NCBI GenBank assembly: GCA_049969855.1
Contig: JBMFOB010000002.1
Coordinates: forward strand, 1 to 64,000
Direction of reading: 5' to 3'
Origin: Candidatus Bathyarchaeia archaeon
Lineage (GTDB): Archaea; Thermoproteota; Bathyarchaeia; Bathyarchaeales; Bathycorpusculaceae
DNA: 64,000 nucleotides
The translations under genes were made by a program, and so were the position numbers. The notes beneath the pieces are model-generated. The model saw nothing but the letters and a program-made list of their open reading frames with translations. It searched no databases and was not told the DNA's origin. Shown here piece after piece: positions 1,424 through 18,248 of the stretch. Position 1 is the first letter of the stretch. Every line of letters begins with the position of its first letter.

Positions 1424-1529
1424 AACAACCCCGTGAAATATAGCATAAGACTATAATAATAAACTTGCGAAAAGCACACAAAATATAAGGAAGCTTTACA
1501 ATTACAAAAGCTATCAATGAGGAATAATA

Positions 1530-1718
1530 ATGGCGGAAAAAACTGCAACCCTAACCCTAGTAACATGCACAAGCTGTGGTAAACCCATAGCTCCAGGAAC
1601 AGAAGCCACAAAGTTTCTCTGTCCAAACTGTGGCGAAATTTTGATAAGGCGTTGTGGAAAGTGCAGAAAGTTTGGGCGTCCATATAAGTGTCCAAAATGT
1701 GGCTTTACTGGACCATAA
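1530..1718 (+). CDS. Small Zn-ribbon protein (HVO_2753 / DUF1610-like)
   Basis: Four CxxC pairs: [21 protein letters not shown]; family usually found next to aEF-1beta. Confidence 0.9.
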
Positions 1719-1750
1719 CTAAATAAGAAAAAAGTGGAAGTTGAAGCGGG

Positions 1751-3376
1751 CTACTCTGGCGGTATCTCGCTGAGCAGTGTTTTAAGGTCTATACCCATTT
1801 TCTTGTTCTTGTAAGCGTAGTAAATGTATAGGGCTAAGCCTATGCCTAAAACGAGACATGATATGAAAATATCTAAGGGCTGCATGCTCTGTGCGTTGGC
1901 GGCGAAGAAGAATATGCCCAAAGCAAAGGCGGCAACACCACATATGGCTGGAATCGGCACTCCAGCAACCTCAACTTTGATGCTTTCGTATATTTCAGGT
2001 TTTGTGATTGGCAGCAAAGCAAGGGCAAGTCCTGTGAATAAATAGCCAAGCAAATACATGAATGTTGCATTAATTCCGCCTGCCAAAGTTCTCAGTGGAC
2101 CCAACACTGGTGAAGAGATGATTATTCCTATGGCTCCTCCAACTATCATGAATAATATTGCCCATGTGGGTGTGTGGAATCTTTCGCTGACATTAGCAAA
2201 TCTTTCTGGAAATAGCCTATCAAAAGCCAAAGAGAACACTCGCCTTGTTTCCATCATTAATGCTGAGGGGTTTACGTGGTAAAGGCTGAAGGCGCCAGCA
2301 GTAGCTATCAAAAATGCAAGGAACACGTTTCCTCCAGCGAATAGAACGGCGAACATTGGTAGCACTGGTTCAATTTTAGGCGTGATTACAAAGTCGGCTT
2401 TCCCCTTGTAGTATGCCCAGCTATATTTGGCAATGAAATCTCCACCTGCATAAAATGCTGAAGCAGCCATAGTTATGTAAATAACAGCCGTTATGAGCGT
2501 ACCACCAATTATTCCTATCAGCAAGTTTCTCTTTGGATTCTTTATCTCGCCCGACCATTGAGCAGGGTTATGGAATCCAGAATAAGCGAAAAGGGCAGCA
2601 CCAGCCACTGCTCGAATTGTAGCGTCAAAGTTTGGTGCAGCTGGGCTATAATTATATTTTTGAGCTATTGCTAAAATCTCATTGTAAGAGCCAGTGCCCC
2701 AGACTGCATCCCATGCGCTTTGGAAGGATGCTGGATTGAATGGGTTAGCATAATTTAGGGCGATGCAAGCTAAGGCGCCTACTAGTGGAATAAACCATAT
2801 TACCGCTATGTATGCCTTGAATGCTGTTCCTCCTATTGTCAAGAAAAACCATATGGTTAAGAGTAGAAGGAACGCAATAGCCAGCGTTATCAAAGGATCT
2901 GGTGGTGACGCTAAGAATTTGCCAAGATCTAGTATTGCGGCGTTTCCAGTGCCTTTTCCAAGCATTAAAAAGGCGATGCCCCAAAGTCCAACGTCAGTTA
3001 CGAGCAAAAACCCTATTGAGAACCATCTGCCCAGAAAGTTTCCTATTGTTACAACGTAGCCAAGCGCTGGGTTTGTTGTTCTTGATATGAAAACGTAGTC
3101 TCCTCCAGCCCTTGGCATGCATGAGGCAAGCCATGCGTATGATATGGCGAAGAAGAAGGCTGGAATCAATCCGATTATGAAAGCCAGTGTTGGGTCTGAG
3201 CCTGGATAGCTATACGGCATTCTTACTGATAGTCCCCAGATTCCTGCTCCTATCATGTTGTTCATTGCCATCATAAGTGCCATCATTGGACCGAATTCTC
3301 TGACAAGCCCAGTAGCCTCTCTTACAAAAGTTGCTTTAGACAATTTTCTCCTCTCCAGATTGCACAATTTTTTCAT
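1751..3376 (-). CDS. APC-family amino acid permease
   Basis: FVREATGLVRE N-terminus, MPRAGGDYVFISR, GEIKNPKR, R.VFSLAFDR.FP...V..RFHTP; about 12-14 hydrophobic segments. Confidence 0.92.
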   Translation of the reverse strand: MKKLCNLERRKLSKATFVREATGLVREFGPMMALMMAMNNMIGAGIWGLSVRMPYSYPGSDPTLAFIIGLIPAFFFAISYAWLASCMPRAGGDYVFISRTTNPALGYVVTIGNFLGRWFSIGFLLVTDVGLWGIAFLMLGKGTGNAAILDLGKFLASPPDPLITLAIAFLLLLTIWFFLTIGGTAFKAYIAVIWFIPLVGALACIALNYANPFNPASFQSAWDAVWGTGSYNEILAIAQKYNYSPAAPNFDATIRAVAGAALFAYSGFHNPAQWSGEIKNPKRNLLIGIIGGTLITAVIYITMAASAFYAGGDFIAKYSWAYYKGKADFVITPKIEPVLPMFAVLFAGGNVFLAFLIATAGAFSLYHVNPSALMMETRRVFSLAFDRLFPERFANVSERFHTPTWAILFMIVGGAIGIIISSPVLGPLRTLAGGINATFMYLLGYLFTGLALALLPITKPEIYESIKVEVAGVPIPAICGVAAFALGIFFFAANAQSMQPLDIFISCLVLGIGLALYIYYAYKNKKMGIDLKTLLSEIPPE

Positions 3377-3460
3377 TATATATTTGTGTGTTTATAAGCC
3401 TTTTTTAGCAACGTTCACTTTTTATGTAATTTTAAAGGAAACTTTTTATTAAATAGAAAA

Positions 3461-4402
3461 TTAGCAAGCCACCCTCCAGTGTCCCTGAACCGTATCTCCA
3501 CTCAAGAAAACAATGTAACCACGCAAAATACCCTCAGCATATTCGGAACCAGGATTAACACAAAGCGTTCTACCAAACCTTTTGAAACCAGCAGACTCAT
3601 GAATATGCCCATGTAACCCCAAAAGAGGCTTATACTTCTCAATCATGTGTCTCACGGCTTTGCTGCCAATAGGCGCCAAATCCACTCCTCCCCCGAAGCG
3701 AACTTTAACTGAAAAGTCCTCTTTCAGTCTTGGCGCTGTGTCAAGCCCAGAATTGTATGGTGGCGCGTGAAAGTTGCATATGAGCTTCTCATAATTTTCA
3801 GCTTTAGCCATTAACTCCTCTAACATGGGTTCAAGCTTTTCATCTGGCGCCTCTCTAGTGGTTTTCCATGGAGTAGGATTAACCCAACCGCATGTGACCA
3901 TTTGATATCCGTCTGGAAGATGGACAAGTTTCATTTCGCATGCAACTACAGAGTCGCTTTTCTCAAGTATTTCATCAACAACTAAGCGGTCATCATTTCC
4001 AGGAGAAACATAAAGCAGTGATTTTCCCTTGAAGTTTTCAGAGGCGAGGTTCATCCAATGTTGCATGCGTTCCATCATGAGGCGGTTGAAAAGGTCTTTT
4101 TGGGCTTGGGGGTCGTTGTTTAATTGTTCAATTTCTCCTTTTTCGCATGGATATGGATAGTAACCTGAATTTGCTATTTTTGCGCTTTCTTCTTGAAGTT
4201 GATTTGCCGCAATTCTGATGTGTCTGCCAAAAATTTCATATGAATATTCATTTCCTTCCCTAACCATTGGAATAACCATTTTTCCAGTTAAATCTCCGCC
4301 TAAAATTGCTATGTCAACCTTAAAATGTTCAATCACTTTCAAAAACTTCTTCCAACAGACATCGCTTCCGTGAACGTCAGATGCAAAGAAGAGTTTCAGC
4401 AA
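3461..4402 (-). CDS. Calcineurin-like (Icc-related) metallophosphoesterase
   Basis: SDVHGS, GGDLTGK, PGNDD, HAPPY, LHGHIHE, NPGSEY motifs. Confidence 0.9.
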   Translation of the reverse strand: MLKLFFASDVHGSDVCWKKFLKVIEHFKVDIAILGGDLTGKMVIPMVREGNEYSYEIFGRHIRIAANQLQEESAKIANSGYYPYPCEKGEIEQLNNDPQAQKDLFNRLMMERMQHWMNLASENFKGKSLLYVSPGNDDRLVVDEILEKSDSVVACEMKLVHLPDGYQMVTCGWVNPTPWKTTREAPDEKLEPMLEELMAKAENYEKLICNFHAPPYNSGLDTAPRLKEDFSVKVRFGGGVDLAPIGSKAVRHMIEKYKPLLGLHGHIHESAGFKRFGRTLCVNPGSEYAEGILRGYIVFLSGDTVQGHWRVAC

Positions 4403-4534
4403 CCATCTTCATCTCCAGACTTTAGTTCTAATGAGAATTTTCAGTGAAATATACTTTATGGAACAGCAAAATATTGCGTTTGCGACTTGTGGTTTTACCA
4501 ATAACTTTTTCTGTTTTCCCCCATAATGTAATGT

Positions 4535-5629
4535 TTGGGAGACTCAGTGGTGCATTGCATTCTCTTTACGGACTATGATGGCACAACTTACGAAGTTGAA
4601 ACGCCATTAACTTCAAAAATCAGCTACGAAAATATTAGAAAAAGCCTCGAAATCCCAGATTATGTTGATAAATCAAGTTTCACCATGGAAAGGGGTTTAG
4701 TTACTGTTTGGGCAGGGCTTAATGCTCACCGAGTTAAAGAACTTTTTCCAGCCGTAAACCTTCAAAAGCAGATTAAAGAACCCATATCAACGCTGTTTTT
4801 TGGTGGAGCAGCAGTTCGCATGTTATCTCCAAGCGCAAATAACCCCTCAAGCCCATTCTTCCGCGAATTAAATGACATAGACTTAATTGCACCTAAAAGC
4901 CGTGCACAAGACCTATACAAACTGCTGTTGTCTCTGGGTGAACTTTGCGGAACAAGATATTACCATTTTGTAGCTCGTTCCGATTGCAGATTTAATGCTA
5001 TGAGGGCTGGAAAACGCTATCGTGTTAGAACCATCGAGAAAATACTTAAGGATGGCTCCCTGCAGTGTGGCGTACTTGACATATTCACCGATGCAGTGGA
5101 TCTTAGGCATAAAGTTGATATCCGCGAAGAATTCAACGTTCCAAAAGAAAATTTGTACACGATAGGCGTGGACAATGTAATTCTTTCCAAGTGTCAATTC
5201 ATCTTTGACGTTCCAATTTCCGACAGAGATGAACTTGCCAGTCAACATATGAGTTATCGGATTCTAAACTACCCCTACTATAAAAGTGACCGCCTTCTAA
5301 TAGGCATAGAAGAGAAGGACATGAAGGACATATGCGCGTTATTCTTTGACCACGAAATCGGCAATGGAAAAAGTAACATAAACCCAGAAAAAATGCGCAG
5401 GATTCTCGAAAAAGACAAGAAGTTCGCCCTAACCTTTCGGCTTAATTTAGAAAATATACTGAGAAACGAAGCAGTTCTTCAAGAAATAGGGCTTTCCAAG
5501 GCGGATATTACAAAAATCTTCTCCCGCATCCAAAAAGTCTTAGAAATAGTGCCGAAAGTGGAGAAGAAATGGAGCAGTCCATGGTGGAACGTTGATGTTG
5601 AAACTCCGCAAATATTTGGAAAAGCTTGA
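4535..5629 (+). CDS. Putative Pol-beta-superfamily nucleotidyltransferase, uncharacterised
   Basis: FFGGAAV...RELNDIDL (hGG...DxD), later LDIF and EEKDMKD. Confidence 0.6.
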   Translation: MGDSVVHCILFTDYDGTTYEVETPLTSKISYENIRKSLEIPDYVDKSSFTMERGLVTVWAGLNAHRVKELFPAVNLQKQIKEPISTLFFGGAAVRMLSPSANNPSSPFFRELNDIDLIAPKSRAQDLYKLLLSLGELCGTRYYHFVARSDCRFNAMRAGKRYRVRTIEKILKDGSLQCGVLDIFTDAVDLRHKVDIREEFNVPKENLYTIGVDNVILSKCQFIFDVPISDRDELASQHMSYRILNYPYYKSDRLLIGIEEKDMKDICALFFDHEIGNGKSNINPEKMRRILEKDKKFALTFRLNLENILRNEAVLQEIGLSKADITKIFSRIQKVLEIVPKVEKKWSSPWWNVDVETPQIFGKA

Positions 5630-5642
5630 ACCCATAAACTTT

Positions 5643-6902
5643 TTACGTTGCGGATTTTGGTTTCTTGTATATTACGCCCTCTTTCATGACAAACTCTACA
5701 TTCTTAAGAGCGTTGATATCAATTAGGGGGTTACCCTTCACTCCTACCACGTCTGCAAGTTTTCCCTTCTCCACCGTGCCAACGCTTTTCTCGATTCCTA
5801 TGCATTCAGCAGCATTTTTTGTGGCAGCAAGTATTGCATCCATCGGTGTCATACCATACTTAACCATAGTTATGGGTTCAGCAGCATTCTCTCCATGCGC
5901 TCTCATCGGAGGTCCAAAAAAGTCTGATCCTGTGGCGATTTTCACTCCAGCCTTATATGCCATCATGAAGCTTTTCGGCATGGCATCTATGCATTCCTCT
6001 TGTTTTCTAAGTCTCCAAGGAGGCATGTCTAAGGGTTTCTCTAAGGATTTCTTGTAAACTTCCACCAGACATAATGTTGGTACAAAGAAAACATCGTGCT
6101 CAAGCATCATCTGCACTGACTCCTCATCTAAGAAATAACCATGCTCAACAGAGTCAACGCCACCAGCAATTGCAATTTTTACGCCTTCTGCTCCCTCAGC
6201 GTGTGAAGCCACTCTTCTCCCAATTCTATGAGCTTCTTCAGTTATTGCCTTCACTTCCTCCACAGTAAATTGCGGATAACGCGGATCATCCTTCTCAGAG
6301 CCAACGCCGCCTGAAGTCATTATCTTTATCACATCTGCCCCATCTCGCAGGGCTTCTCTGGCAGCACGGCGGCAATCATCTGGTCCGTCAGCCAGTAAAA
6401 CCCCCATTTTTAGGACTTCTTCCCTTGGCAAATAATGAATGTCAGAATGCCCTCCAGTCTGCGAAATTGTTCTTCCGGCTGCAAATATTCTTGGTCCAAT
6501 AATGGTTCCTTCGTTAATTGCCTTTTTAAGAGATAAGGATATTGAGCTTCCAAGATCCCTCACCATTGTGAATCCAGCTTTTAAGAGTTTTTGGCAGTCC
6601 TCGACAGCCCTAATCACTTTGAGGTCATGGGGAACTATTATGTCCTCAGCTGGACTGTAGCTTCTCTCACCTAAAATATGAACGTGTGCGTCTGTTAGTC
6701 CTGGTAAAAGTGTTAAGTCTTCTAGGTCGACAATTTTTGCATCTCCAATTGTTTCAATTTCTCCCTCTTTGCCAACGTCGCTGATTTTGTCTCCTTTGAC
6801 AACGATTACGGGGTTAGCCATAGGGTCTTTTCCTGTGCCGTCGATGAGAAGTTTTGCTTTTATGTAAATTGTTTCTTCTTTCTTTTTCTCCATTTTGTTC
6901 AC
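5643..6902 (-). CDS. Metal-dependent amidohydrolase (Xaa-Pro dipeptidase-like)
   Basis: LPGLTDAHVH, GFT.VRDLG, GADVIK, ASHAEG, SVEHG, GSD motifs. Confidence 0.9.
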   Translation of the reverse strand: MNKMEKKKEETIYIKAKLLIDGTGKDPMANPVIVVKGDKISDVGKEGEIETIGDAKIVDLEDLTLLPGLTDAHVHILGERSYSPAEDIIVPHDLKVIRAVEDCQKLLKAGFTMVRDLGSSISLSLKKAINEGTIIGPRIFAAGRTISQTGGHSDIHYLPREEVLKMGVLLADGPDDCRRAAREALRDGADVIKIMTSGGVGSEKDDPRYPQFTVEEVKAITEEAHRIGRRVASHAEGAEGVKIAIAGGVDSVEHGYFLDEESVQMMLEHDVFFVPTLCLVEVYKKSLEKPLDMPPWRLRKQEECIDAMPKSFMMAYKAGVKIATGSDFFGPPMRAHGENAAEPITMVKYGMTPMDAILAATKNAAECIGIEKSVGTVEKGKLADVVGVKGNPLIDINALKNVEFVMKEGVIYKKPKSAT

Positions 6903-6905
6903 CTC

Positions 6906-8522
6906 CTACGCTTTTTCATGGGTAAGGCGCAAAACTTTTCCAGGTAAGGCTTTCGTGTGTTCTCCATGTTCTATAACTATTTTTCCGTTAACAATTACGT
7001 ACTCCATTCCTTTTGGATAGCGATGGGGTTCCGCATAAGTGGCTTCGTCTGATATAACGTTTGGGTTAAAGGTGACGATGTCTGCGCACATGCCTTTTCT
7101 TATGATTCCTCTGTCAAACAGTTTAAGCTTGTTTGCAGGCAGCGAGGTCATTTTTCTTATGGCTTCTTCAAGCCTTAAAATGCCAAATTCGTTAACGTAT
7201 CTTTTGATGACTCTGGGGAATGTTCCATAAGCTCTTGGATGTGGTTTACCTTTGCTGAGAAGGCCGTATGTTGCTTGGATTGAGGCGTCTGAACCCACCA
7301 TTGACAGTGGATGGCTTAGAACTGTGCAAACATCTCCTTCCCTCATCGTAAACCTTACAACTTCCGTTGAGGCTTCCTCTTCGATTAACAAGTTAAAAAC
7401 GAATTCAAAAGGGTCAACATTAAGCGAATCGCATATTTCCTTAATCATTTTTCCCTCATACTCCGGATGCTTTTTAGAGTATGAAATCATTATAGCATCC
7501 CACCCGGCGCTTATGAAGGGACTTGGCCAATTTGGCAATCCATTAACCATTTCTTCCTTAATCTTTCCTACCCAATCAGAATCTCTAAGCCTCTCCAAAA
7601 TTTTGTCAACACCGCCTTCATGGGCTTCTGGTGGGAGAAGAGCGCTCAACCCAAAGCTGGCTGCAGTATACGGATAAACATCGCAGGTTACATCCACGCC
7701 TCTTTCTCTGGCTTCCTCTATCATCCGCAAAGTTGTTTTAACCTTGCCCCAAGCTAGTTTTCCATGAGCCTTATGATGGGATATCTCCACTGACACGCCA
7801 GCTTTTTCGCCTATTTCAATTGCCTCCCTAACAGAGTTAACGAGTCTCGGTCCGTCTTCGCCTCTAATGTGAGAAGCGTATATTCCGCCATATTTTGCCA
7901 CAACTTTAGCCAACTCTATTATCTCCATTGTGTCAGCATAACTGCTTGGCGGATAAATGAGGCCCGTTGATAAACCGAAGGCTCCAGCCTTCATGGCTTC
8001 CTCCGTATTCCTCCTCATCTCTTCTAATTGCTCTTCTGTAGGAGGCTTGTTCTCATATCCCATGGTGAGCACTCGAATGTTCTGATGCCCAACCAGAGCA
8101 GCCACATTTATGGATAATCCTGGTTCTTCTAAGATTTTAAAGAATTCATCCATTTTTGACCAGTCTAATGCTATTCCAGCTTCCTCTAAGATTGGGGTCT
8201 CTCTTCTAATATCTTTCCTCAACTCATCGTTTAAAGGCGCTGCTGAATTGCCACAGTTTCCTATAACTTCGGTTGTTACTCCCTGTCTCACTTTGCCCTC
8301 AGCATACCTGTTTATGAGTAGGGCAAAATCTGAGTGCGAGTGCATGTCTATAAAACCTGGACAAACTATCATATTATTAGCGTCTAAGACAACATCTGCA
8401 GAATTCGAATTTAAATCGCCAATATCGGTTATTCGTCCCTTTTCAATTGCTATGTCAGCGTTAAACCATGGATTGCCGCTTCCGTCGACAACTTTGCCAC
8501 CCTTTATTAATATATCCCACAT
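6906..8522 (-). CDS. N-acyl-D-amino-acid deacylase (D-aminoacylase) family
   Basis: PGFIDMHSHSD, GVTTEVIGNCG, STGLIYPP, SHIRGE, SHHKA, GSDA, HPRAYGTFPR. Confidence 0.93.
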   Translation of the reverse strand: MWDILIKGGKVVDGSGNPWFNADIAIEKGRITDIGDLNSNSADVVLDANNMIVCPGFIDMHSHSDFALLINRYAEGKVRQGVTTEVIGNCGNSAAPLNDELRKDIRRETPILEEAGIALDWSKMDEFFKILEEPGLSINVAALVGHQNIRVLTMGYENKPPTEEQLEEMRRNTEEAMKAGAFGLSTGLIYPPSSYADTMEIIELAKVVAKYGGIYASHIRGEDGPRLVNSVREAIEIGEKAGVSVEISHHKAHGKLAWGKVKTTLRMIEEARERGVDVTCDVYPYTAASFGLSALLPPEAHEGGVDKILERLRDSDWVGKIKEEMVNGLPNWPSPFISAGWDAIMISYSKKHPEYEGKMIKEICDSLNVDPFEFVFNLLIEEEASTEVVRFTMREGDVCTVLSHPLSMVGSDASIQATYGLLSKGKPHPRAYGTFPRVIKRYVNEFGILRLEEAIRKMTSLPANKLKLFDRGIIRKGMCADIVTFNPNVISDEATYAEPHRYPKGMEYVIVNGKIVIEHGEHTKALPGKVLRLTHEKA

Positions 8523-8663
8523 GAAACCAACCTTCTGAAAGTGGCTTTTTGTACAAACGAGAATTTAAGTTTAAAATGGTTTAGACTTGAAATTTCATGT
8601 TCCTCTAAAGGTTTATAACATTTAATGGCGAAAAGAGTAAAGAATCATGCCATAAAAAGATGA

Positions 8664-9029
8664 ATGCAGATGGAAATTACCGCTGATGAGAAGAAGCTTA
8701 CGATTCAAGACGATAAGTTAATCGTGACAAGCGAGTCTCTGAAGGAAGAGTATAATCTTTCAGAACTTGTTAAAATTGGTTTAAAAAGAAAATTTAGCAA
8801 GCCTCTTTTAGCCTTGGCAGTTATATGTGCAATGCTAAGTTTATTTAACGCTGAAAACCCATTTTATTTGATATTAACACTTCTAATATTCATATCAGCC
8901 ATTTTTTTGAGAGAGGAAAACATAATTTTAGTGTTTAAAGATAAAACCTTAATTCTGAGGCGCTTGGAGAAAAAGAAACGCAAGGAATTTTTGGCATATT
9001 TAAAGAGTTATTTAGGAAAAACATCTTAG
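8664..9029 (+). CDS. Small hypothetical membrane protein (2 TM)
   Basis: 121 aa ORF with two adjacent hydrophobic segments; fills the gap between convergent genes. Confidence 0.6.
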   Translation: MQMEITADEKKLTIQDDKLIVTSESLKEEYNLSELVKIGLKRKFSKPLLALAVICAMLSLFNAENPFYLILTLLIFISAIFLREENIILVFKDKTLILRRLEKKKRKEFLAYLKSYLGKTS

Positions 9030-10180
9030 TCTGCTACAATTTCAACATTGGCTCTTGGAACTAAAACTTTTCTTCCATCTAACAGTTCTATTCTAACAAC
9101 TCTCACGAGGGATTCTGTTTCTATTTTATTCAATTCTATGGGAAGTTCTATGACTTTTCCAACAGCCCCAAAATATGGAAACCTTATTATTCTAACTATG
9201 CTTCCAACTTTCATTTTTCCTTCTTCAAGTTCTTTTTCTCTTCTGGCACGTTCGCTGACTTCTAATGGTATTATTATTTCTGGTCTCAGAACGCCTGCTC
9301 TAACCTGAGTTGTGCCGTTAATTGCCGCTATTCTTCCTTCATTTTCTTTTAATATTCTGAAAGTGTTTTCAGACATTGGCAGTTTTCCAAATCCTTCTGT
9401 GAGAATTAACGTGAAATCTATGTCTTCTCTACCTGTTATGGCTACTCCTATCCTTGTTTTGAGAATGTTCTCCAAATCTTCCATTCTGGCTCCTCCCACA
9501 ACTATTCCATTCACTTTTATTTTTCTGGCTTTTTCTAGGGCTTCATAGGTTACGAGGGAGCCTCCAACAATTATTTTTCCAGCATCATTCTCCGTTATCA
9601 TGTCAGCCTCAAGAACTTGCTCCGGGTTTGACACAGCCATCTTGAGCTCTCCGAATCTTTCTCCGGAGAAGCCTATTATTCCTTGAATGAAGGCTGCGTA
9701 AGTTCCTATTACGGCTGCCTCGTTAGGCATTACTTCGTCAACTTTTCCTTTAATGTAGGCTTTAACTTCCACATTTTTTGGGGGTTCCCTTATTGTTAAG
9801 TGGCCTGTAATCTCGTTTATTCGTTCTATTACGCCGCTTACTTCTGCGGTTACTTTCTTGTTTATTAGTCCGAATAAGGATGTGTGTCTTGCTAAGAGTT
9901 CTCCTTTACTTACGTTTTCTCCTTCCTTCTTTAGTATGTAGCGTACGGTTTCTTCTGGGTCTACATCTAAGAGTTCTGCTATCTTAACGATGTATGGTGC
10001 TCCTTCTATGCAGCATGTGGCGACGGTTGTGTCGAAATTGACGTTTTCTCCCTTTTTAACGAGGATTTCGCCTTTTAAGGGTAGGCTGCGTATTCTCCTT
10101 ATGTAGGTGCATGGGGTTACCTTTAATCCTGGAGTGTAAGCGAAGCTTTCTTTGGAAGTTTTCATAGTTGGCTTCTCCAT
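9026..10180 (-). CDS. Conserved hypothetical protein with barrel-sandwich-hybrid (lipoyl/RnfC/NqrA-N-like) repeats; partner of GlmL-like protein
   Basis: AYTPGLKV; LVKKGENV and ILKKEGENVSKGELLA...TAEVSGVIE hybrid motifs; GVAITGRE, TEGFG, INGTTQVRAGVLRPE, C-terminal VPRANVE; overlaps the glmL-like stop. Confidence 0.75.
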   Translation of the reverse strand: MEKPTMKTSKESFAYTPGLKVTPCTYIRRIRSLPLKGEILVKKGENVNFDTTVATCCIEGAPYIVKIAELLDVDPEETVRYILKKEGENVSKGELLARHTSLFGLINKKVTAEVSGVIERINEITGHLTIREPPKNVEVKAYIKGKVDEVMPNEAAVIGTYAAFIQGIIGFSGERFGELKMAVSNPEQVLEADMITENDAGKIIVGGSLVTYEALEKARKIKVNGIVVGGARMEDLENILKTRIGVAITGREDIDFTLILTEGFGKLPMSENTFRILKENEGRIAAINGTTQVRAGVLRPEIIIPLEVSERARREKELEEGKMKVGSIVRIIRFPYFGAVGKVIELPIELNKIETESLVRVVRIELLDGRKVLVPRANVEIVAD

Positions 10181-11994
10181 TTTTCTATTTTTTCTTTGGG
10201 GTAAAGGTTCATGGAGGAATACCAGTCTAATATTGTGTTGAATCTTTCTTTTTCGTCTTCAGGTATGTGTATTGGTCTTCCTCTTCCATCAAACACTAAA
10301 CCAACTACTCCGCCTCTTACGGTTTTTTCAACATTTCTTCCGAAGCCCGCTCCGAAGTTAAATTCGCTGGATGGGGATACTTTGACGTTTACGGTTTTTT
10401 CGTATGGGATTTCAACTTTTACTATTTTGCTGAATTGTAGTTCAAAATTGTCTTTCTTTCCATTTTCATATTCTATTGTGATATCGGCTACTTTGGCGCC
10501 TGGTTTGCTTATGCCTGCTCCGGCTATTAGTGTTCCAAGGTATATGAGGCATTCTTTTTCGAATATGTGTAGGGCTATTTCTGGGTGGATTGTGGAGAGT
10601 ACGCCTAAATGCGGCATCATGAAGACGCTGTCTTGAGCTAGGGATGTGAAACCTACTGGTTGGAAAGCGTCTGTCAGCATCATCATTGATTGGCTTCTTC
10701 TTGGAGCTCTTGAGAGTAGCCCTCCAGTGCCTATTATATAGTTAATTCTGTATACGTCTAGGTAAGTGTCTTCGGTTTTTACTTCTTCGAAAATGTCGGA
10801 GATTGTTCTTTCCTTTTTTACGCCTTTGAGTTCTCTTGCAAGGTATTTGTGGTGATTGAAGGCCATTCTTATTGATTCTCTGGCGAGGGCATGTTCTACG
10901 ACTAAGTCTTCAAAAGTCATGGGGATGGTTGTTGGTCTTATCATTTTGTTGTAGACTATGCCCATTATTTCTTCTTCGCTTATTTGGAATGGGGTCCACT
11001 TTTTCACGTTTTTAATGCTTGCTTCTTTTAGGACGTTGCCTACGCTGTAGCTCATTCCCAAGTTTGCGCTGACGGTTCTTAGGAATCTTCCGTCAAAGTA
11101 TGAGTACACGTTTGTTGTGGCTCCTCCGAGTCCTACGCCGATGCTGTTTACACACTTTAGTTCAGAGAATTTTCTAACCATCATTCCTTCAGCGGCTGGT
11201 GTTGGCATAATGTTTGTTGAAACTAATTTTTTGAGTTTTTCATATCCTGGGGCGTGCGCCATTACGTGTTCCATAAATAATCCTAAAATGGCGTCTCTTG
11301 CTGGTTCTACCTTTTCAACTTCTAACATGGGTCTAAGGTTGTCTGTTATTCTAACGTCGAAATTTTCGCATAATGTTTTCTTTACATCTTCCCTTGCATC
11401 TTTGTTTCCAGCATAGACTACTGGTAGAAGAAATTCTATTTCAAATCTTGGGCGGGGTTTAGCCATGGCTAATATTTCAGCCATTTCCAACACATGCGAT
11501 TTCGTTCCTCCATCTATCCCGCCTGCAAGCAATACTATGTCTGGTCTCAGAAACCTTAGGGCGCTTATTTTTTCATAAGTGTCTCGTCCGTCGTCTACTG
11601 AAAGGACATCCATTACTATGGCTCCGGCTCCAAGGGCTGCTCTTTGGGCGCTTTCTGCGGTTATGCTTTTGACTACTCCTTGAACGAGCATTTGGAGTCC
11701 TCCGCCGGCGCTGCTTGTTGAAACGTAAACGTCTATTCCGGTGTTTTCTCCTTTGTGGGGCATTAGGAACCGCAATTCTTCACATTCGTAATCTATTATT
11801 TTATGGCCTGTGAGTTCTTCCACTTCTCTTACGGCGTTTCTTATTCCCATTGTAACGTCTTCCACGGGTTTTTCAACTGTTGTGGGTGCTTCGCCGCTGG
11901 ATAGAAATTTCCATTCACCACTAACTTTGCCGAAAAATCTGGCTTTGGTTGTGGTGCTTCCCACGTCGGTTGCTAGGATGAATTTTGGTTCCAT
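10162..11994 (-). CDS. GlmL/MutL (glutamate mutase L)-family ASKHA ATPase-like protein
   Basis: TDVGSTTTKA (phosphate 1), TSSAGGGL, LLAGGIDGG, MPTPAA, GLGGATTNVYS (phosphate 2), RTVSANLGMSYS, IGTGG. Confidence 0.85.
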   Translation of the reverse strand: MEPKFILATDVGSTTTKARFFGKVSGEWKFLSSGEAPTTVEKPVEDVTMGIRNAVREVEELTGHKIIDYECEELRFLMPHKGENTGIDVYVSTSSAGGGLQMLVQGVVKSITAESAQRAALGAGAIVMDVLSVDDGRDTYEKISALRFLRPDIVLLAGGIDGGTKSHVLEMAEILAMAKPRPRFEIEFLLPVVYAGNKDAREDVKKTLCENFDVRITDNLRPMLEVEKVEPARDAILGLFMEHVMAHAPGYEKLKKLVSTNIMPTPAAEGMMVRKFSELKCVNSIGVGLGGATTNVYSYFDGRFLRTVSANLGMSYSVGNVLKEASIKNVKKWTPFQISEEEIMGIVYNKMIRPTTIPMTFEDLVVEHALARESIRMAFNHHKYLARELKGVKKERTISDIFEEVKTEDTYLDVYRINYIIGTGGLLSRAPRRSQSMMMLTDAFQPVGFTSLAQDSVFMMPHLGVLSTIHPEIALHIFEKECLIYLGTLIAGAGISKPGAKVADITIEYENGKKDNFELQFSKIVKVEIPYEKTVNVKVSPSSEFNFGAGFGRNVEKTVRGGVVGLVFDGRGRPIHIPEDEKERFNTILDWYSSMNLYPKEKIEKWRSQL

Positions 11995-12243
11995 TTTGAC
12001 CAGCGTTTTCTGAGTTATAAGAATTTGGAGAGTTATATATGTTATTTCTGAAAGTATTGGAATATTAATGAAAATGTCATTACTCGATGAAGTGGGGTTC
12101 TTTTGTGAATAGCTTCCACTTGCGTTTGGTTTTTGTCTTTAAAGGCTTTTTCTGTTCTTTTCTTTTATGGCATCTGGAAAATCTTATATAATAAATGCTT
12201 CCTATATGGAACATTGTTTTTCAAAAATGGAAAAAGGAGAAAA

Positions 12244-13035
12244 ATGTCGATGGATATCATTTATTCGAAAGCTGGAGTGGTTCCTTTTGCTTTGCTAGTG
12301 TTTCTTATGCTTGCGGGCTACTATTTCATGCGGAAAGCTAAGGGAGGCAAACCGATTCCTGTTAGGAAGATGGCCGCTTTTGACGCTATAGAAGAGGGTG
12401 TTGCGAGGTCTGTTGAGATGGGCAGACCTGTCCATTTCACTCTTGGATATGGTCCACTATCTACTTCTATGGCTCCTCAATATCTTGCTGGTTTAGGAGT
12501 GCTAAATCACGTGGCAAAGCTTTGCGGCAAATACGGTGCGAATCTCGTTTCAACCCTTGGGGTTCCAGAGCTCATAGCAGCAGAAGAAGAGGTCATCCGT
12601 GACGCTTATTACTCTGCTGGAAAACCAGAACTTTACAATGTTACATACAATGTAAGGTATTTGACAGACCAGCAGTTCGCTTATGCTTCAGCTGTACAGG
12701 CAACAATACAGCGAGAAAATGCTGGAACAAACATAATGGTTGGGCCTTTCTGGGCTGAATCGCTAATATTTGTTGAGGCAGGTGCTGCTGGCGGAGCTTT
12801 TCAAGTTGCTGGAACAGCCCGTGAAACTCAAATTCCCTTCTTCGTCTTGGCTGCTGACTATTCCTTCATAGGGGAGGAGATATTCGCTGCTGGTGCTATG
12901 GCTTCTGGAGACAATGTGACATTAGCGTCTATAAGAGGACAGGACGTAGGAAAACTGCTTTCATGGGTTCTAATCGTGGTGGGTCTTGTGTTGCTGCCGT
13001 TGGGCATTAAACTGGCGACTTATCTGGTGATGTAA
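12244..13035 (+). CDS. DUF6754-like membrane protein
   Basis: PVRKMAAFDAIEEGVARSVEMGRPVHF, QFAYAS, FWAESL, QIPFF..ADY..IGEEIFAAGA, SIRGQD; start moved to ATG 12244 after an AGGAG SD (ORF track 12133). Confidence 0.75.
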   Translation: MSMDIIYSKAGVVPFALLVFLMLAGYYFMRKAKGGKPIPVRKMAAFDAIEEGVARSVEMGRPVHFTLGYGPLSTSMAPQYLAGLGVLNHVAKLCGKYGANLVSTLGVPELIAAEEEVIRDAYYSAGKPELYNVTYNVRYLTDQQFAYASAVQATIQRENAGTNIMVGPFWAESLIFVEAGAAGGAFQVAGTARETQIPFFVLAADYSFIGEEIFAAGAMASGDNVTLASIRGQDVGKLLSWVLIVVGLVLLPLGIKLATYLVM

Positions 13036-13048
13036 GGGGTGAAATGAA

Positions 13049-13717
13049 ATGGGTGCTGTAGTAAGGAGAAATATTCCGCAAATAATCGTGACAATAATAA
13101 TACTGTTGATGGTGATCTTTTACTTCTTCTACATAAGCAGCGAAGTGAGAACAGCATTTAACACTTGGGATAAAGCTCTGACTGATTGGGTTGTTGTAAT
13201 AACTGCTATGGCCGCCATTGTTGGAGGCGTAGACATATTACGATACCACGTAAATCAGAGCCGAAAGAAGGAGCCTAAACAAGTGTTCTTTAGTGGCATA
13301 GTAATGATTATGGAAGTAATAATGGTTGCCTTTGCAGTTATAGCCTTGTCTTCAGGAATTTCGATACCGACACAGCCAAACTTTCAATGGCTTTACACAT
13401 ACATCTATGCGCCTTCTGATGCTGCAATGTATTCAATACTAATCTTTTACATAGCTTCAGCCTCTTACAGAGCCTTTCGAGTTAGAAACCCACCAGCGCT
13501 TCTCTTACTGGTAGTGGCTATTCTTGTAATGATCGGAAATACAAGCCTAGGGGAATTACTGTGGAGTGGTTTGCTTCCTATCAGAGACTGGATAATGACT
13601 GTTCCGAACACTGCAGCATTTAGACCCATTACTATGGGTTTAGGCTTTGGAATCATCATATTGGGGCTTAGGCTTCTGTTGGGCAAAGAAACCACTTGGA
13701 TGGGGAGGAGGGAATAG
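13049..13717 (+). CDS. Uncharacterised integral membrane protein (about 6 TM)
   Basis: FYIASASYRAFRVRN, W..VPNTAAFR, LRLLLGKE; GGGGTGA SD upstream. Confidence 0.8.
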   Translation: MGAVVRRNIPQIIVTIIILLMVIFYFFYISSEVRTAFNTWDKALTDWVVVITAMAAIVGGVDILRYHVNQSRKKEPKQVFFSGIVMIMEVIMVAFAVIALSSGISIPTQPNFQWLYTYIYAPSDAAMYSILIFYIASASYRAFRVRNPPALLLLVVAILVMIGNTSLGELLWSGLLPIRDWIMTVPNTAAFRPITMGLGFGIIILGLRLLLGKETTWMGRRE

Positions 13718-13719
13718 AC

Positions 13720-14574
13720 ATGACGGCAATAGAAAAAATTGATAAAATCTTAAGCACACGGCAGCTATTGTACACGTTGCTCGTCATCGCAATAATACTT
13801 CCTCTGATTTATCCAGTTGGTCTTCCAATAGGAATTTCATCACGCACAAGGGCAGTTTACGACTACATACAAGATGATAGCAAAGTTCCGCCAGGTTCGC
13901 ACATTCTTATAGACATATATTATGAGGTTGCTGCAAGAGCCGAATTGGAGCCGCAAGTCATAGCCCTCACGAAACAATTATTTGAGAAAGGGTGTAAGCT
14001 AGTGTTCCTTTCAACGATAAACTATGGTCCAATTGTGTTTCAATTTTTGCAAGCTTCAGCTCCTGACGTGTTTGAAGGTAAGACGTATGGAGAGGACTAC
14101 GTTTTCTTGGGATACATTGCAGGTCAAGAGTCAGCAGTAGCCTCTTTAGCAAAGAGTATTACTGGAACTGTTGCAAGGGATAATTATGACCATCCAACTT
14201 CAAGTTTGCCATTACTACAAGAAGCTAATGATGCCTCAGCTTATGAGCTAGTTATTGTTGCATCATCTGGAACAGACACTTTTGGATGGTATGTCCGCCA
14301 GTGGTACACCCCCTACCACACGCCTCTCCTATTTGGAGCACTCAGCGTCATTGCTCCATCAATCGAACCATACGTTAACGCTGGACAAGCAGTCGGCATG
14401 CTTACTGGACAAAGGGCAGCAGCAGAATACGAACTATTGGTAGGAAGAAAAGGTTTAGGCATTGCTTCAATGGATGCTCAAAGCTTCGCCCATGGACTCA
14501 TTCTGGTATTCATCATCGTGGGAAACATAGTGTTTGCCTACACAAAACTCTCTAAGAGGGGTGAGAAGAAATGA
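13720..14574 (+). CDS. Uncharacterised membrane-anchored protein with a soluble alpha/beta domain
   Basis: N- and C-terminal TMs; AELEP, YGEDYVFLGYIAG, PYVNAGQ..G...G.RAAAEYE, MDAQS.AH; start ATG 13720 (ORF track 13696). Confidence 0.8.
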   Translation: MTAIEKIDKILSTRQLLYTLLVIAIILPLIYPVGLPIGISSRTRAVYDYIQDDSKVPPGSHILIDIYYEVAARAELEPQVIALTKQLFEKGCKLVFLSTINYGPIVFQFLQASAPDVFEGKTYGEDYVFLGYIAGQESAVASLAKSITGTVARDNYDHPTSSLPLLQEANDASAYELVIVASSGTDTFGWYVRQWYTPYHTPLLFGALSVIAPSIEPYVNAGQAVGMLTGQRAAAEYELLVGRKGLGIASMDAQSFAHGLILVFIIVGNIVFAYTKLSKRGEKK

Positions 14575-15281
14575 GCGAAATAGAAGTAATGGGTGCTTGG
14601 CTTGCAGCCGTAGTAGTAGTGTGGATTTACAGCTTTGTATACAAAGACAACGTGTTATATCGCTTTGCTGAACACTTATTCGTTGGAACAGCAGCAGGCT
14701 ATTCCATAGCACTTTCATTAGATAGCTTAAACAAAACTGCCTTCGTTCCATTAGGCAAAGACATTTTGGCAAATTGGCATCTAATAATACCATTGCTGTT
14801 AGGGCTTACATTCTTCATGAAATACTCAAAGAAGTATTATTGGGTTGCAAGGTATGGCATAGGCGTAAACGTTGCCGTAGGCGCAGCCTTAGCTTTAAGA
14901 ACAGCTCCAATGGCTAACATAATAAAGCAGGTAAACGCTGCCATAGTGCCCCTTTGGACGCCCACAGATTTGCTGACAACCTTTAACAACTGGCTCATGG
15001 TTCTAATAACCTTAGGCGGGTTAACCTACTTTATATTTACACTGTTTCCAAAGGCAGAAGGAAAATCAACATCTATGCATAAGATATACAGAGCATTCTT
15101 CCTAATAGGAATATATGGAATGATGGTTGGCTTCGGAGCCCTATTCGCAAACACAATAATGACAAGGGTTGGGTTCTTAATAGGAATATACTTGCAATAC
15201 TTTCAGCCGCAACCATACGCTGCCATAATAGCAGTTGTGCTAGCTGTGATTGCAATAGCCTACGCCATGAGGCGAAAATAA
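14571..15281 (+). CDS. Uncharacterised integral membrane protein (about 7 TM)
   Basis: YSFVYKDNVLYRFAEHLFVGTAAGY, YFIFT, MVGFGALFANTIMTRV; ATGA overlap with the previous gene. Confidence 0.8.
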   Translation: MSEIEVMGAWLAAVVVVWIYSFVYKDNVLYRFAEHLFVGTAAGYSIALSLDSLNKTAFVPLGKDILANWHLIIPLLLGLTFFMKYSKKYYWVARYGIGVNVAVGAALALRTAPMANIIKQVNAAIVPLWTPTDLLTTFNNWLMVLITLGGLTYFIFTLFPKAEGKSTSMHKIYRAFFLIGIYGMMVGFGALFANTIMTRVGFLIGIYLQYFQPQPYAAIIAVVLAVIAIAYAMRRK

Positions 15282-15297
15282 CAAAGGGTAAACTTCC

Positions 15298-15579
15298 ATG
15301 AGCTTGGAACCAAAAACCGTAGAAAACGCTGAAGATGAAGAGTGGCTTCAAAAAATAGCCAAAAAAATAGTTGACTCAAAAATGGACGGCATTGTCTTAC
15401 TCTTCCTAGAAACAATTGGACCAACAAGCCATGTTTGGTCCCAACTTGCCCGCCTTTACCTCCAACCCCTTTTTATCCTTATTGGACCAGACAGCGAGAA
15501 ACTTTTGGCATTTGCTGAAAAACCTGAAAACGTGGAAAAGCTTGTCAAAAAAATAGAAGAATGTCGTGAACATTCTTAA
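15298..15579 (+). CDS. Small hypothetical protein at end of membrane operon
   Basis: 93 aa, 16 bp after the previous stop; KIAKKIV...LFLETIGP.S...SQL. Confidence 0.7.
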   Translation: MSLEPKTVENAEDEEWLQKIAKKIVDSKMDGIVLLFLETIGPTSHVWSQLARLYLQPLFILIGPDSEKLLAFAEKPENVEKLVKKIEECREHS

Positions 15580-15714
15580 AGCTTCCAATTTTTATATTTT
15601 CTTTTTCTTTAAAATGCTTATAACATTATTATCATTTAGAAAATTGGATGAGCAAAGCTTAAATTGTGTTCGTCGATTGTTAAAGGGCAAAAGATTCGCA
15701 AAGGAGAATGTTAA

Positions 15715-15990
15715 ATGGGCAACGTGATAATATCGTACAAAATATTTCCAACAGACATAATTGTCGACTTTACTGATTTGAAAAAGAAAATTGAGGAATG
15801 CTTACCTGAGTTTGCATCAATTTATGGATACGGTGAAGAACCCATAGCTTTTGGCTTGAAGGCTTTGATAGCGCATATAAAATTTCCAGAAGACAAGAGT
15901 GGCATGTTGGACGAGTTTGAAAAGAAGCTTGAAACAGTGAGCGAAATAAGTCAAGTGCAAACGATTATGGTGCGTAGGGTGAGCAGATAA
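15715..15990 (+). CDS. ef1b: Translation elongation factor aEF-1beta
   Basis: YKIFP..., EEPIAFGLKAL motif, 91 aa; AGGAG SD. Confidence 0.95.
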   Translation: MGNVIISYKIFPTDIIVDFTDLKKKIEECLPEFASIYGYGEEPIAFGLKALIAHIKFPEDKSGMLDEFEKKLETVSEISQVQTIMVRRVSR

Positions 15991-16076
15991 CCTTAAACGG
16001 TTGTTTTAAACATTTATATATGAATGAATCTTTGCTTTGAAACGTATTATGGTAATAATAACGGAGGGAATTCTGA

Positions 16077-18248
16077 TTGAGTGAAGTGCAATTGCGTGTT
16101 GGCGATGCAAGACAAAGAGATGTCGGCAGAGGCATAGCCCGCATAGACCAGAAAACAATGGAGAAGCTGGGCATTTCAGCAGGAGACGTCATAGAAATAG
16201 TGGGTAAAAGGTCAACTTCAGCCATAGCTTGGCCAGCCTACAGCGAAGACCAAAACCGAGACATTATACGGATAGACGGTTTCACCCGCAAAAACGCTGG
16301 AGTAGCCATAAACGAGTACGTCATTGCAAGACCAGCCAAAGTTAAAAATGCTCTAAGCATAACATTGGCGCCTGTGGACATGCGATTAAATGTTGACGAG
16401 GATTTCACAAACTTTGTTAAAAACCGCCTTATGGAAAGAACCCTAGTTGAGGGCGACACCACATTGGTTATGATGCTTGGACACGCCATACCCTTCACCG
16501 TTTCCAAAACCCGCCCTCACGGCATAGTTAAAGTTACAGCAGAAACAAGACTAACAATCCTAAACGAACCAGCGCCAGAGGGAAAGGGACTTCCAAGAAC
16601 AACATACGAAGACATTGGCGGACTACAAGAGGAAATCCAAAGAGTAAGGGAAATGGTTGAACTTCCGCTGAGGCATCCGGAGCTTTTCCAGAGGCTTGGA
16701 ATAGAACCACCAAAAGGAGTACTGCTCCATGGGCCGCCTGGCTGCGGCAAGACCTTGCTTGCTAGGGCTGTAGCAAACGAGTCGGAAGCAAATTTCTTCT
16801 CAATAAACGGACCTGAAATAATGAGCAAATTCTACGGCGAATCTGAAGCCAGACTTAGAGAAATCTTCCAACAAGCCCAACAGAACGCTCCAAGCATAAT
16901 ATTCATCGACGAGCTTGATGCTATAGCGCCGAAACGGGAAGAAGTCACTGGAGAGGTTGAAAGGCGTGTTGTTGCCCAACTCTTAGCCCTAATGGACGGT
17001 TTATCTGGAAGGGGAAACGTCATAGTTATAGGCGCAACCAACAGACCTGGCGCCCTTGACCCGGCTCTTCGCAGACCGGGCAGATTTGACAGAGAAATTG
17101 AGATAGGTGTTCCAGACAAGCGTGGAAGGTATGAAATCCTGCAGATTCACACGCGTGGGATGCCTTTGGCTGAAGATGTTGACCTTAAGAAGCTTTCTGA
17201 AATAACCCATGGATATACAGGCGCAGATTTGGCGGCTCTCTGCAGAGAAACAGCCATGAAAGCCCTCCGCAGATACTTGCCCCAAATAAACCTTGAAGAA
17301 GAGCGCATACCACCAAGCGTTTTAGAGAAAATGGAAGTGAAAATGGAAGACTTCATAAACGCCTACAAAGAAGTGACGCCCACAGCCATGCGTGAAGTCT
17401 ACATAGAAGTGCCAACAATCCACTGGGACGACATCGGCGGACTTGAAGAAGTCAAACAAGAACTTAAAGAAGCAGTGGAATGGCCGCTTAAGAATCCTGA
17501 AATTTTCAAGAGACTTGGCATAAAACCTCCAAAGGGCATACTCCTTTATGGTCCTCCTGGCTGTGGCAAGACATTGTTGGCTAGGGCTGTGGCTACTGAA
17601 AGCGAAGCAAACTTCATTACAATTAAGGGTCCAGAAGTGTTTTCAAAATGGGTCGGCGAGTCTGAAAAAGCCATAAGAGAAGTTTTCAGAAAAGCCAGAA
17701 TGGCAGCGCCGGCCGTAATCTTCTTTGATGAGATGGATTCGCTTGTTCCTCGGAGAGGCTTAGGCTTTGCAGACAGCGGCGTAACAGAACGGGTCATCAG
17801 TCAACTCTTAACTGAGATGGATGGAATTTTAACCTTGGAGGATGTTGTTGTTATAGCGGCTACAAACAGACCGGACATTATTGACCCTGCAGTGCTTCGC
17901 CCTGGAAGGTTTGATAGGCTAATATATGTGCCTGAACCCGATGATAAAACTCGGCTTCAAATATTTAAAATTCACACGAGAAACATGCCTTTAGCAAAAG
18001 ACGTAAGCCTAGAACAGTTAGCTGCTATAGCCAAGAATTATTCTGGTGCAGACATAGAAGCCCTTTGCAGAGAAGCAGCCATGCATGCCTTAAGGAGAGA
18101 TGTGAACGCTAAAGAAGTCACGCTGGGTGACTTTCAAGAAGCGATGAAAAGGATTGGTCCTTCCATAACGCCTGACATGGAAAAATGGTATAAAGGGTTC
18201 ATGCAGCAAGTTCGGCAAGTTCAAAAACCAGCAACACCAGTTGCTTAA
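16077..18248 (+). CDS. cdc48: CDC48/VAT AAA+ ATPase
   Basis: N-domain [11 protein letters not shown]; two AAA modules ([23 protein letters not shown]). Confidence 0.97.

Follow-up and report, generated by a model that had tools for sequence, protein, structure and literature searches.

Organization of the Locus

We analyzed a 64,000-nt window of a Candidatus Bathyarchaeia archaeon (positions 1 to 64,000 of contig JBMFOB010000002.1, assembly GCA_049969855.1) that carries seven genes for a long MutL-family ATPase, its soluble partner, four membrane-anchored subunits (DUF6754, M2, M3, and M4), and a small helical protein, S93. An open reading frame (ORF) check of the window verified all seven (Table 1). 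On the plus strand, the genes for DUF6754, M2, M3, M4, and S93 follow one another with gaps of 13 bp and 2 bp, a 4-bp overlap, and a 16-bp gap; a preliminary description made from the sequence alone had the seven genes, the first three of these spacings, and the minus-strand overlap right. A longer DUF6754 frame of 300 aa, beginning at TTG 12133, probably extends too far upstream, and the M3 reference sequence that we used starts at 13723, one codon after the ATG. Each gene is present once in the genome (tblastn), and the closest named relatives are themselves Candidatus Bathyarchaeia. Pfam searches of 16 proteins encoded in 389–18248 found no mutase, ATP-binding cassette (ABC) ATPase, or solute-binding families, in agreement with the earlier reading.

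The genes form two modules, a soluble set (ATPase, partner, and S93) and a membrane cassette with the fixed order DUF6754-M2-M3-M4. The divergent operon pair initially proposed exists at the present locus but is a local feature, because relatives hold the same genes in tandem, convergent, or unlinked. Likewise, the "four membrane proteins" are all membrane-anchored, but two of them are two-helix anchors with a soluble domain of about 200 residues. A further gene for a 121-aa two-helix protein without a Pfam family (8664–9029, plus strand) is convergent with the partner gene, overlapping it by 4 bp; homologues were seen in the same place in 11 archaeal loci and not in bacterial loci.

Table 1. 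Genes of the locus and the adjoining amidohydrolase genes, with window positions
Feature	Position	Strand	Basis
Long GlmL/MutL-family ASKHA (actin/Hsp70-fold) ATPase, 610 aa	10162–11994	-	PF13941, tree, motifs
ATPase partner, 384 aa	9026–10180	-	Overlaps ATPase gene; weak RnfC_N/biotin-lipoyl and KOW matches
DUF6754 subunit, 263 aa	12244–13035	+	PF20539; ATG 12244
Membrane subunit M2, 222 aa	13049–13717	+	Six helices; no Pfam family
Membrane subunit M3, 284 aa	13720–14574	+	Two helices and alpha/beta domain; ATG 13720
Membrane subunit M4, 236 aa	14571–15281	+	Six to seven long helices
S93, 93-aa small conserved helical protein	15298–15579	+	Copy number; position relative to ATPase
Two amidohydrolases, 538 aa (D-aminoacylase-like) and 419 aa (Xaa-Pro-dipeptidase-like)	5643–8522	-	Sub-cut-off family matches

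The Seven Genes Belong to a Conserved System

At all 18 of the relatives' loci, the cassette order DUF6754-M2-M3-M4 was retained, once with a split M3. The ATPase pair (ATPase and partner) lay within 10 kb in 13 of the 18, in divergent, tandem, or convergent arrangement; for four of the five loci without a nearby pair, the ATPase was located elsewhere in the genome, and the fifth (L012) was outside that search. In a wider set, M2, M3, and M4 followed 97 of the 103 DUF6754 genes that had 3.3 kb of downstream sequence, a count that excludes the short loci L019–L048 and the near-copy L001. Four of the six misses were complete by earlier profiles, one had no such genes, and one was rearranged.

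Presence and absence across genomes gave the same picture. Among 301 genomes of the archaeon's own phylum, DUF6754 occurred in eight, and full-length ATPase and partner occurred together in seven of these same genomes; the eighth is a fragment at a contig end, and weaker partial matches were other proteins. In a sample of 201 Bacillota-group genomes, DUF6754 was found in 14, the partner in 13, and both in 12. No P value is attached to this co-occurrence because related genomes are not independent. The profiling called for at the outset thus finds that the genes co-occur as a unit in both samples, and the present locus holds one representative of a widespread, conserved, and apparently unstudied machine.

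Many Cassettes Share Few ATPase Pairs

The two modules differ in copy number. Five archaeal genomes (G080, G206, G266, G272, and G278) had 7, 6, 7, 4, and 8 DUF6754 matches, from divergent cassettes, and each had one ATPase and one partner; the match counts are minima where only some candidates were scored. In the multi-cassette archaeal genomes the ATPase pair lay apart from the cassettes, and S93 was single in each of the three tested. The bacterium G301, whose phylum the Bacillota-group sample covers, carries 18 complete cassettes with a median pairwise identity of 35–43%, together with four long ATPase pairs, one short form, and one S93. Tandem triple cassettes were also found on five metagenome contigs (L102, L113, L118, L124, and L126); in L102 and L124 the triple immediately follows the partner gene. 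S93 occurred once per genome in four of five multi-cassette genomes, often directly upstream of the ATPase, and by copy number it is grouped with the ATPase pair; Pfam gave nothing over cut-off for it.

Two further arrangements were recorded. Just upstream of S93 in five bacterial loci (L104:825–1259, L108:12899–13315, L120, L140, and L141) lies a gene whose ∼140-aa product has a hydrophobic hairpin at its N terminus, possibly an eighth component. Divergent long-ATPase/partner pairs also occur several per genome (L209–L226 of G473, G499, G396, G386, and G436; L153, L168, and L169); some precede recurring 280- to 335-aa proteins without a Pfam family or adjoin MFS/FtsX-type permeases.

The Long ATPase Is Distinct from Mutase-Linked GlmL

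The ATPase belongs to the MutL family (PF13941; E 6e-116, residues 6–482) and falls under the cut-offs of all three NCBIfam models, those for GlmL and Or-4 and TIGR01319 (223 bits against a cut-off of 475 for NF040745 and 222 against 600 for NF040744). It bears a C-terminal extension of about 130 aa not found in mutase-linked GlmL. In a quick tree of 62 sequences, from which ten near-duplicates were excluded, long and short PF13941 forms separated with a Shimodaira–Hasegawa-like approximate likelihood-ratio test (SH-aLRT) value of 100, at a split where long branches meet; the lone "short" row within the long clade is a sequence cut by a contig end. The phosphate-1 motif (D10 and G12–K17) was invariant in 71 ATPase sequences, and the connect and adenosine motifs are likewise conserved in the long ATPase. 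A sequence search of the Protein Data Bank (PDB) with the ATPase gave no match at E ≤ 0.001. In three genomes (G387, G428, and G463), PF13941 lies inside open frames of ∼1240 aa, a further fusion type.

Excerpts of one article call MutL/GlmL a chaperone that reactivates glutamate mutase (PMC4682846). Among five system-bearing archaeal genomes, 91–99% complete, glutamate mutase E (PF06368) was found in none; PF09043 (lysine aminomutase) was also found in none, in a search whose control gave no match anywhere. Methylmalonyl-CoA mutase (PF01642) was present in one of the five, the present genome, where its B12-binding subunit adjoins an apparent GTPase of its own, presumably of the MeaB type. In the Bacillota-group sample, 65 of the 78 genomes with PF13941 were without DUF6754. 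Short forms adjoined glutamate-mutase or ornithine-aminomutase subunits at five of the seven loci scanned; the long ATPase always adjoins the barrel-sandwich partner and not mutase subunits. The long ATPases form a clade separate from mutase-linked GlmL, and their occurrence does not follow that of B12 mutases, an outcome that goes against the mutase linkage named in the preliminary description as a refuting condition.

The 384-aa partner has a barrel-sandwich-like N half, an alpha/beta middle, and a KOW-like C end. Its Pfam matches to RnfC_N and biotin-lipoyl domains are weak (E 0.005 and 0.04), its better PDB sequence matches were to KOW-type proteins alone (E ≥ 0.004; NqrA at E 0.57), and the ESM Atlas returned only hypothetical clusters or clusters named RnfC_N, lipoyl, or KOW. 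No His or Cys was conserved above 40% in 115 partner sequences. Natural ATPase-partner fusions occurred twice (P0136 and P0187) among the best 150 partner homologues.

Anatomy of the Membrane Cassette

Topology was predicted from hydropathy and charge averaged over 89–112 homologues. In the DUF6754 subunit (PF20539, E 1e-68), two predicted membrane helices flank a basic, cytoplasmic domain, which AlphaFold2 modeled confidently as Rossmann-like [per-residue confidence (pLDDT) 93]. Its fold matches were generic (VIA-align best Z 10.1, root-mean-square deviation 3.1, 139 residues), with close to equal scores for RCK, SIS, SDR, and sirtuin folds. DUF6754 has invariant acidic residues and, judging from the models, is a candidate docking site for the ATPase. 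Thirty-five DUF6754 ORFs exceed 340 aa because they are extended at the N terminus; judged by eye, many of them start in the manner of signal peptides, in line with an N-out topology.

M2 is predicted to have six helices with the N terminus inside and a conserved basic cytoplasmic loop (Y140–R146). Pfam found no recurring family among 103 M2 members (TMD0 weakly in at most five of 103, others in one or two members). One 617-aa homologue (L142:2941–4794) carries an insertion of about 400 residues in a predicted outer loop. M3 has two helices flanking an alpha/beta domain; the helix ends are basic and the domain is therefore probably outside. M3 is a candidate substrate-facing subunit. Among 102 M3 members, no Pfam family recurred. 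M4 is N-out with six or seven helices, its polar second helix having been missed by the script and added by reading, and conserved polar residues (E34, R94, Q120, T195, and R199) lie in or beside the helices. Its AlphaFold2 model consists of long helices (pLDDT 84.5) with a predicted template modeling (pTM) score of 0.53, a low value that would be expected for a subunit needing partners; the best VIA-align match of this low-pTM model had a Z of 6.3. No Pfam family recurred among the scanned M4 members, and among 8000 longer candidates none showed M4 fused to another subunit, which is weak evidence.

PDB sequence searches with DUF6754, M2, M3, and M4 gave nothing at E ≤ 0.001, and Foldseek found no match at that threshold for DUF6754 and M4, which does not prove the folds new. 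In the membrane subunits, conservation exceeds 65% for no Cys and 90% for no His. Pfam and PDB sequence searches with the membrane proteins, and fold searches with DUF6754 and M4, gave no match to a known transporter family, as the preliminary description had supposed.

Link Between the ATPase Module and the Membrane Unit

A three-chain structure prediction with ATPase (5–600), partner (162–382), and DUF6754 (41–223) scored 0.57, compared with 0.00 in all three controls, one of them with the ATPase replaced. The runs shared at least 92% of contacts, with partner pLDDT of at least 83. Of the calibration pairs, 116 of 157 solved ones and two of 215 mismatched ones came up to the score mark; at or below 0.60 lie only 18 of the solved pairs and both mismatches, and the present job differs from the calibration. 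The prediction lends weak support to docking of DUF6754 on the ATPase.

A genome assembled as a single 2.83-Mb contig (G406) points the same way. It has short PF13941 forms only, and the partner was not found. Its cassette (L228:6511–9269) is complete and open-reading but strongly diverged, keeping 20/47, 4/16, 14/22, and 10/20 conserved positions in its subunits, fewer than any alignment member, and it is without the DUF6754 R41–G60 helix and the M2 basic loop. Of 41 genomes around G406, nine have both DUF6754 and partner, and the DUF6754 sequences of eight relatives are 70–98% identical to one another and 35–40% identical to that of G406. To judge from these sequences, the pair-less cassette may serve as a natural control for the link between the modules.

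Neighboring Genes

The two amidohydrolases beside the system are candidates for enzymes that use an imported substrate: despite rearrangement, the 538-aa and 419-aa proteins are kept near it in seven and 11 of the 18 loci, respectively. Families at cassette flanks elsewhere include M14, M20, M24, M28, M81, S9, TldD, gamma-glutamyltransferase, amidohydrolase, and DUF885, and many cassettes have unrelated neighbors. Farther out, an APC permease, a metallophosphoesterase, and a 364-aa protein without a Pfam family, nucleotidyltransferase-like by eye, occupy 1751–5629; these three genes appear together again on contig C11, next to corrinoid and methyltransferase-like genes.

Proposed Mechanism

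We think there is about an even chance that the system is a modular ATP-coupled importer of an undescribed kind with a shared energizing module; we infer ATP hydrolysis, transport, its direction, and the substrates. The four plus-strand proteins would assemble into one membrane unit of about 16 helices, in which M2 and M4 would form the pore region, with the M3 alpha/beta domain outside and the DUF6754 Rossmann-like domain inside. ATPase, partner, and S93 would dock on the DUF6754 domain, and the nucleotide cycle of the ATPase would drive or reset the membrane unit, in the manner reported for GlmL-type proteins that remodel B12 mutases. A single ATPase module could serve many such units of divergent sequence, and each unit would probably have its own substrate, an amino-acid derivative, peptide, or amide that nearby hydrolases would process. 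More tentatively, and with somewhat less than even confidence, the system may be a primary active transporter class with an actin/Hsp70-fold ATPase, a four-subunit unit with alpha/beta domains on opposite faces, one soluble module for up to about 18 substrate-specific units, and, in archaea, a rewired nucleotide site.

Several observations weigh against the importer. Both phosphate-2 aspartates are replaced, by G and N, in 19 of 19 rows of the subclade with archaeal ATPases, the present one included; they are retained in 13 of the 14 remaining long rows of the tree alignment. According to extracts of one article, Hsc70 mutated at D199 or D206 shows impaired ATP binding and hydrolysis, and MreB D162G is viable (PMC3137890). 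Judging by the motif, these residues would be the equivalents of the phosphate-2 positions, and the archaeal enzyme may work slowly, have a rewired site, or act as a switch. M2-M4 homology was not detected with shallow or deep alignments, and the HHalign match between DUF6754 and M3 weakened from E 9.5e-5 with shallow to 2.2e-3 with deep alignments. M3 is possibly a distant DUF6754 homologue in opposite orientation, and an inverted-repeat design is only suggested, because M2 and M4 do not align and DUF6754 and M3 do so weakly. In G386, G499, and G473, ATPase pairs outnumber detected cassettes (5 vs. 1, 7 vs. 2, and 5 vs. 2), and no constant neighbor of the divergent extra pairs was found. Of two draft genomes, G313 yielded the partner with a truncated ATPase but no cassette, and G322 yielded a canonical cassette but no ATPase pair. 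G406 is a single case, and its cassette may be a foreign copy. Finally, the enrichment of peptidase or amidohydrolase genes beside cassettes, which speaks for the importer, is modest: they made up 17 of 65 immediate flanks and 12 of 98 distal genes (P = 0.035; G278, G272, G301, and G302), and P rose to 0.13 once DUF885, which we take to be a peptidase, was dropped. The counting was manual, the E-value cut-offs were unequal, the genomes are not independent, and some genes were named via a cluster representative; 98 of 130 sampled distal genes were scanned, and G080 repeats and most locus-edge ORFs were excluded.

The motif loss speaks for a rival reading that we consider unlikely but worth real weight, namely, an ion-gradient-driven or facilitated transporter whose ATPase module regulates, gates, or assembles the membrane unit and is not its motor. 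The opposed orientations of the subunit pairs evoke secondary carriers, which share this feature, and the G406 cassette is still open-reading without a pair; against this stand the near-obligate co-occurrence in archaea and bacteria, the full motifs in bacterial long ATPases, and the loss of conserved residues in all four G406 subunits. Somewhat less probable still is a transmembrane sensor, in which the outer M3 domain would bind a ligand, DUF6754 would relay the signal, and the ATPase-partner pair would be the output switch. Such a sensor would suit the ligand-binding-type alpha/beta domains predicted on both faces, the many paralogous cassettes, the variable contexts of the extra ATPase pairs, and the KOW-like end of the partner, but twelve M2/M4 helices with conserved polar residues exceed the needs of a relay, and the scanned neighbors include no constant transcription factor, kinase, or cyclase. 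The phosphotransferase system (PTS) combines general components with many specific units, and its organization is paralleled here by general parts present once per genome beside many four-gene specific units. Group translocation of this type, with an ASKHA kinase, the partner as phosphoryl carrier, and cassettes that import and modify, could also draw on the invariant acidic residues of DUF6754. It is nevertheless quite improbable, with no His or Cys conserved above 40% in the partner and with hydrolases, not enzymes for phosphorylated products, as neighbors.

The chance is similarly slight that the genes encode another envelope machine, one that works in export or secretion or that extracts a protein or lipid from the membrane. 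Hsp70-fold ATPases do remodel proteins, and the 35 extended DUF6754 ORFs with their signal-peptide-like starts would fit, but there is no constant cargo gene and catabolic amide hydrolases stand beside many cassettes. The energy-coupling complex offered as an option in the preliminary description gains little support, since the proteins lack a set of well-conserved Cys or His residues that could hold redox cofactors. A complex in the style of Rnf or Nqr, conserving energy by redox chemistry or ion pumping, is a remote possibility: the RnfC_N-like barrel-sandwich in the partner, the NqrA match, and the two subunits of about six helices in opposed orientations are set against the lack of well-conserved Cys/His in membrane subunits or partner, the lack of any Rnf/Nqr family match in 103 + 89 members, and the 18 paralogues in one genome. 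Largely refuted, and with almost no probability left, is a reactivase for a B12 mutase encoded elsewhere, with the membrane genes as unrelated neighbors. Family membership in PF13941 and the methylmalonyl-CoA mutase of the present genome speak for it; the zero counts for glutamate mutase E in all five genomes and for methylmalonyl-CoA mutase in the other four, the separate long clade, the many Bacillota-group genomes with PF13941 and no DUF6754, and the mutase neighbors of short forms speak against it.

The importer, therefore, stays our preferred reading at the strength given above. The broader proposal of an undescribed membrane machine is supported because none of the three refuting checks named with it, on co-occurrence, mutase tracking, and known transporter families, refuted it. 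Its narrower form, an ATP-driven peptide or amino-acid transporter, is favored by the copy ratio and the weak complex prediction, but the phosphate-2 loss counts against it and the peptidase enrichment is modest, and it is something that we still infer.

Comparison with Known Systems

The GlmL/MutL and Or-4 proteins (NF040745, NF040744, and TIGR01319) share the Pfam family and the phosphate-1, connect, and adenosine motifs with the long ATPase. Unlike these 450- to 490-aa forms, the protein here has ∼610 aa, forms its own clade, has the partner beside it in place of mutase subunits, and in the archaeal subclade has lost the phosphate-2 aspartates. In group II energy-coupling factor (ECF) transporters, a common energizing module serves many substrate-specific membrane components. 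The present system likewise has one energizing module, and its many membrane units are divergent, scattered, and close to catabolic genes; the ECF-like sharing pattern was found with the exceptions that have more ATPase pairs than cassettes. It differs in having no ABC ATPase, EcfT, or S-component match, a four-subunit specific unit, and an actin/Hsp70-fold ATPase.

The diol/glycerol dehydratase reactivase DdrAB is an ASKHA ATPase that remodels a partner. Both systems have an ASKHA ATPase with a dedicated partner that acts, or here may act, on another protein complex; in contrast to DdrAB, our ATPase has no sequence match of solved structure, its predicted target is a membrane unit, and no dehydratase is encoded nearby. 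The likeness to Rnf/Nqr lies in a weak barrel-sandwich resemblance (RnfC/NqrA) and in two small multi-helix subunits of opposed orientation (RnfA/E and NqrD/E), but the present proteins have no cofactor ligands, no family matches, and high paralogue numbers.

The system is real, conserved, and unlike known systems in composition. We found no paper on "DUF6754" and no description of the system in the literature covered, outside which lay subscription papers and bioRxiv supplements. New here are the copy-ratio pattern, the degraded cassette without its ATPase, the weak docking prediction, and the phosphate-2 motif loss.

Significance

The known classes of primary transporters are the ABC/ECF, P-type, and rotary ATPases, and none of the primary solute transporters known to us runs on an ASKHA-fold ATPase. 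If confirmed, the importer would add a class of primary transporter. The single-copy seven-gene locus is compact and lends itself to expression and structural studies. Confirmation would also correct thousands of database labels: homologues of the long ATPase are named "glutamate mutase L" or "methylaspartate mutase," which implies a B12 pathway absent in these organisms. It would explain, moreover, a possible route of substrate uptake in sediment archaea that ferment proteins and in anaerobic bacteria.

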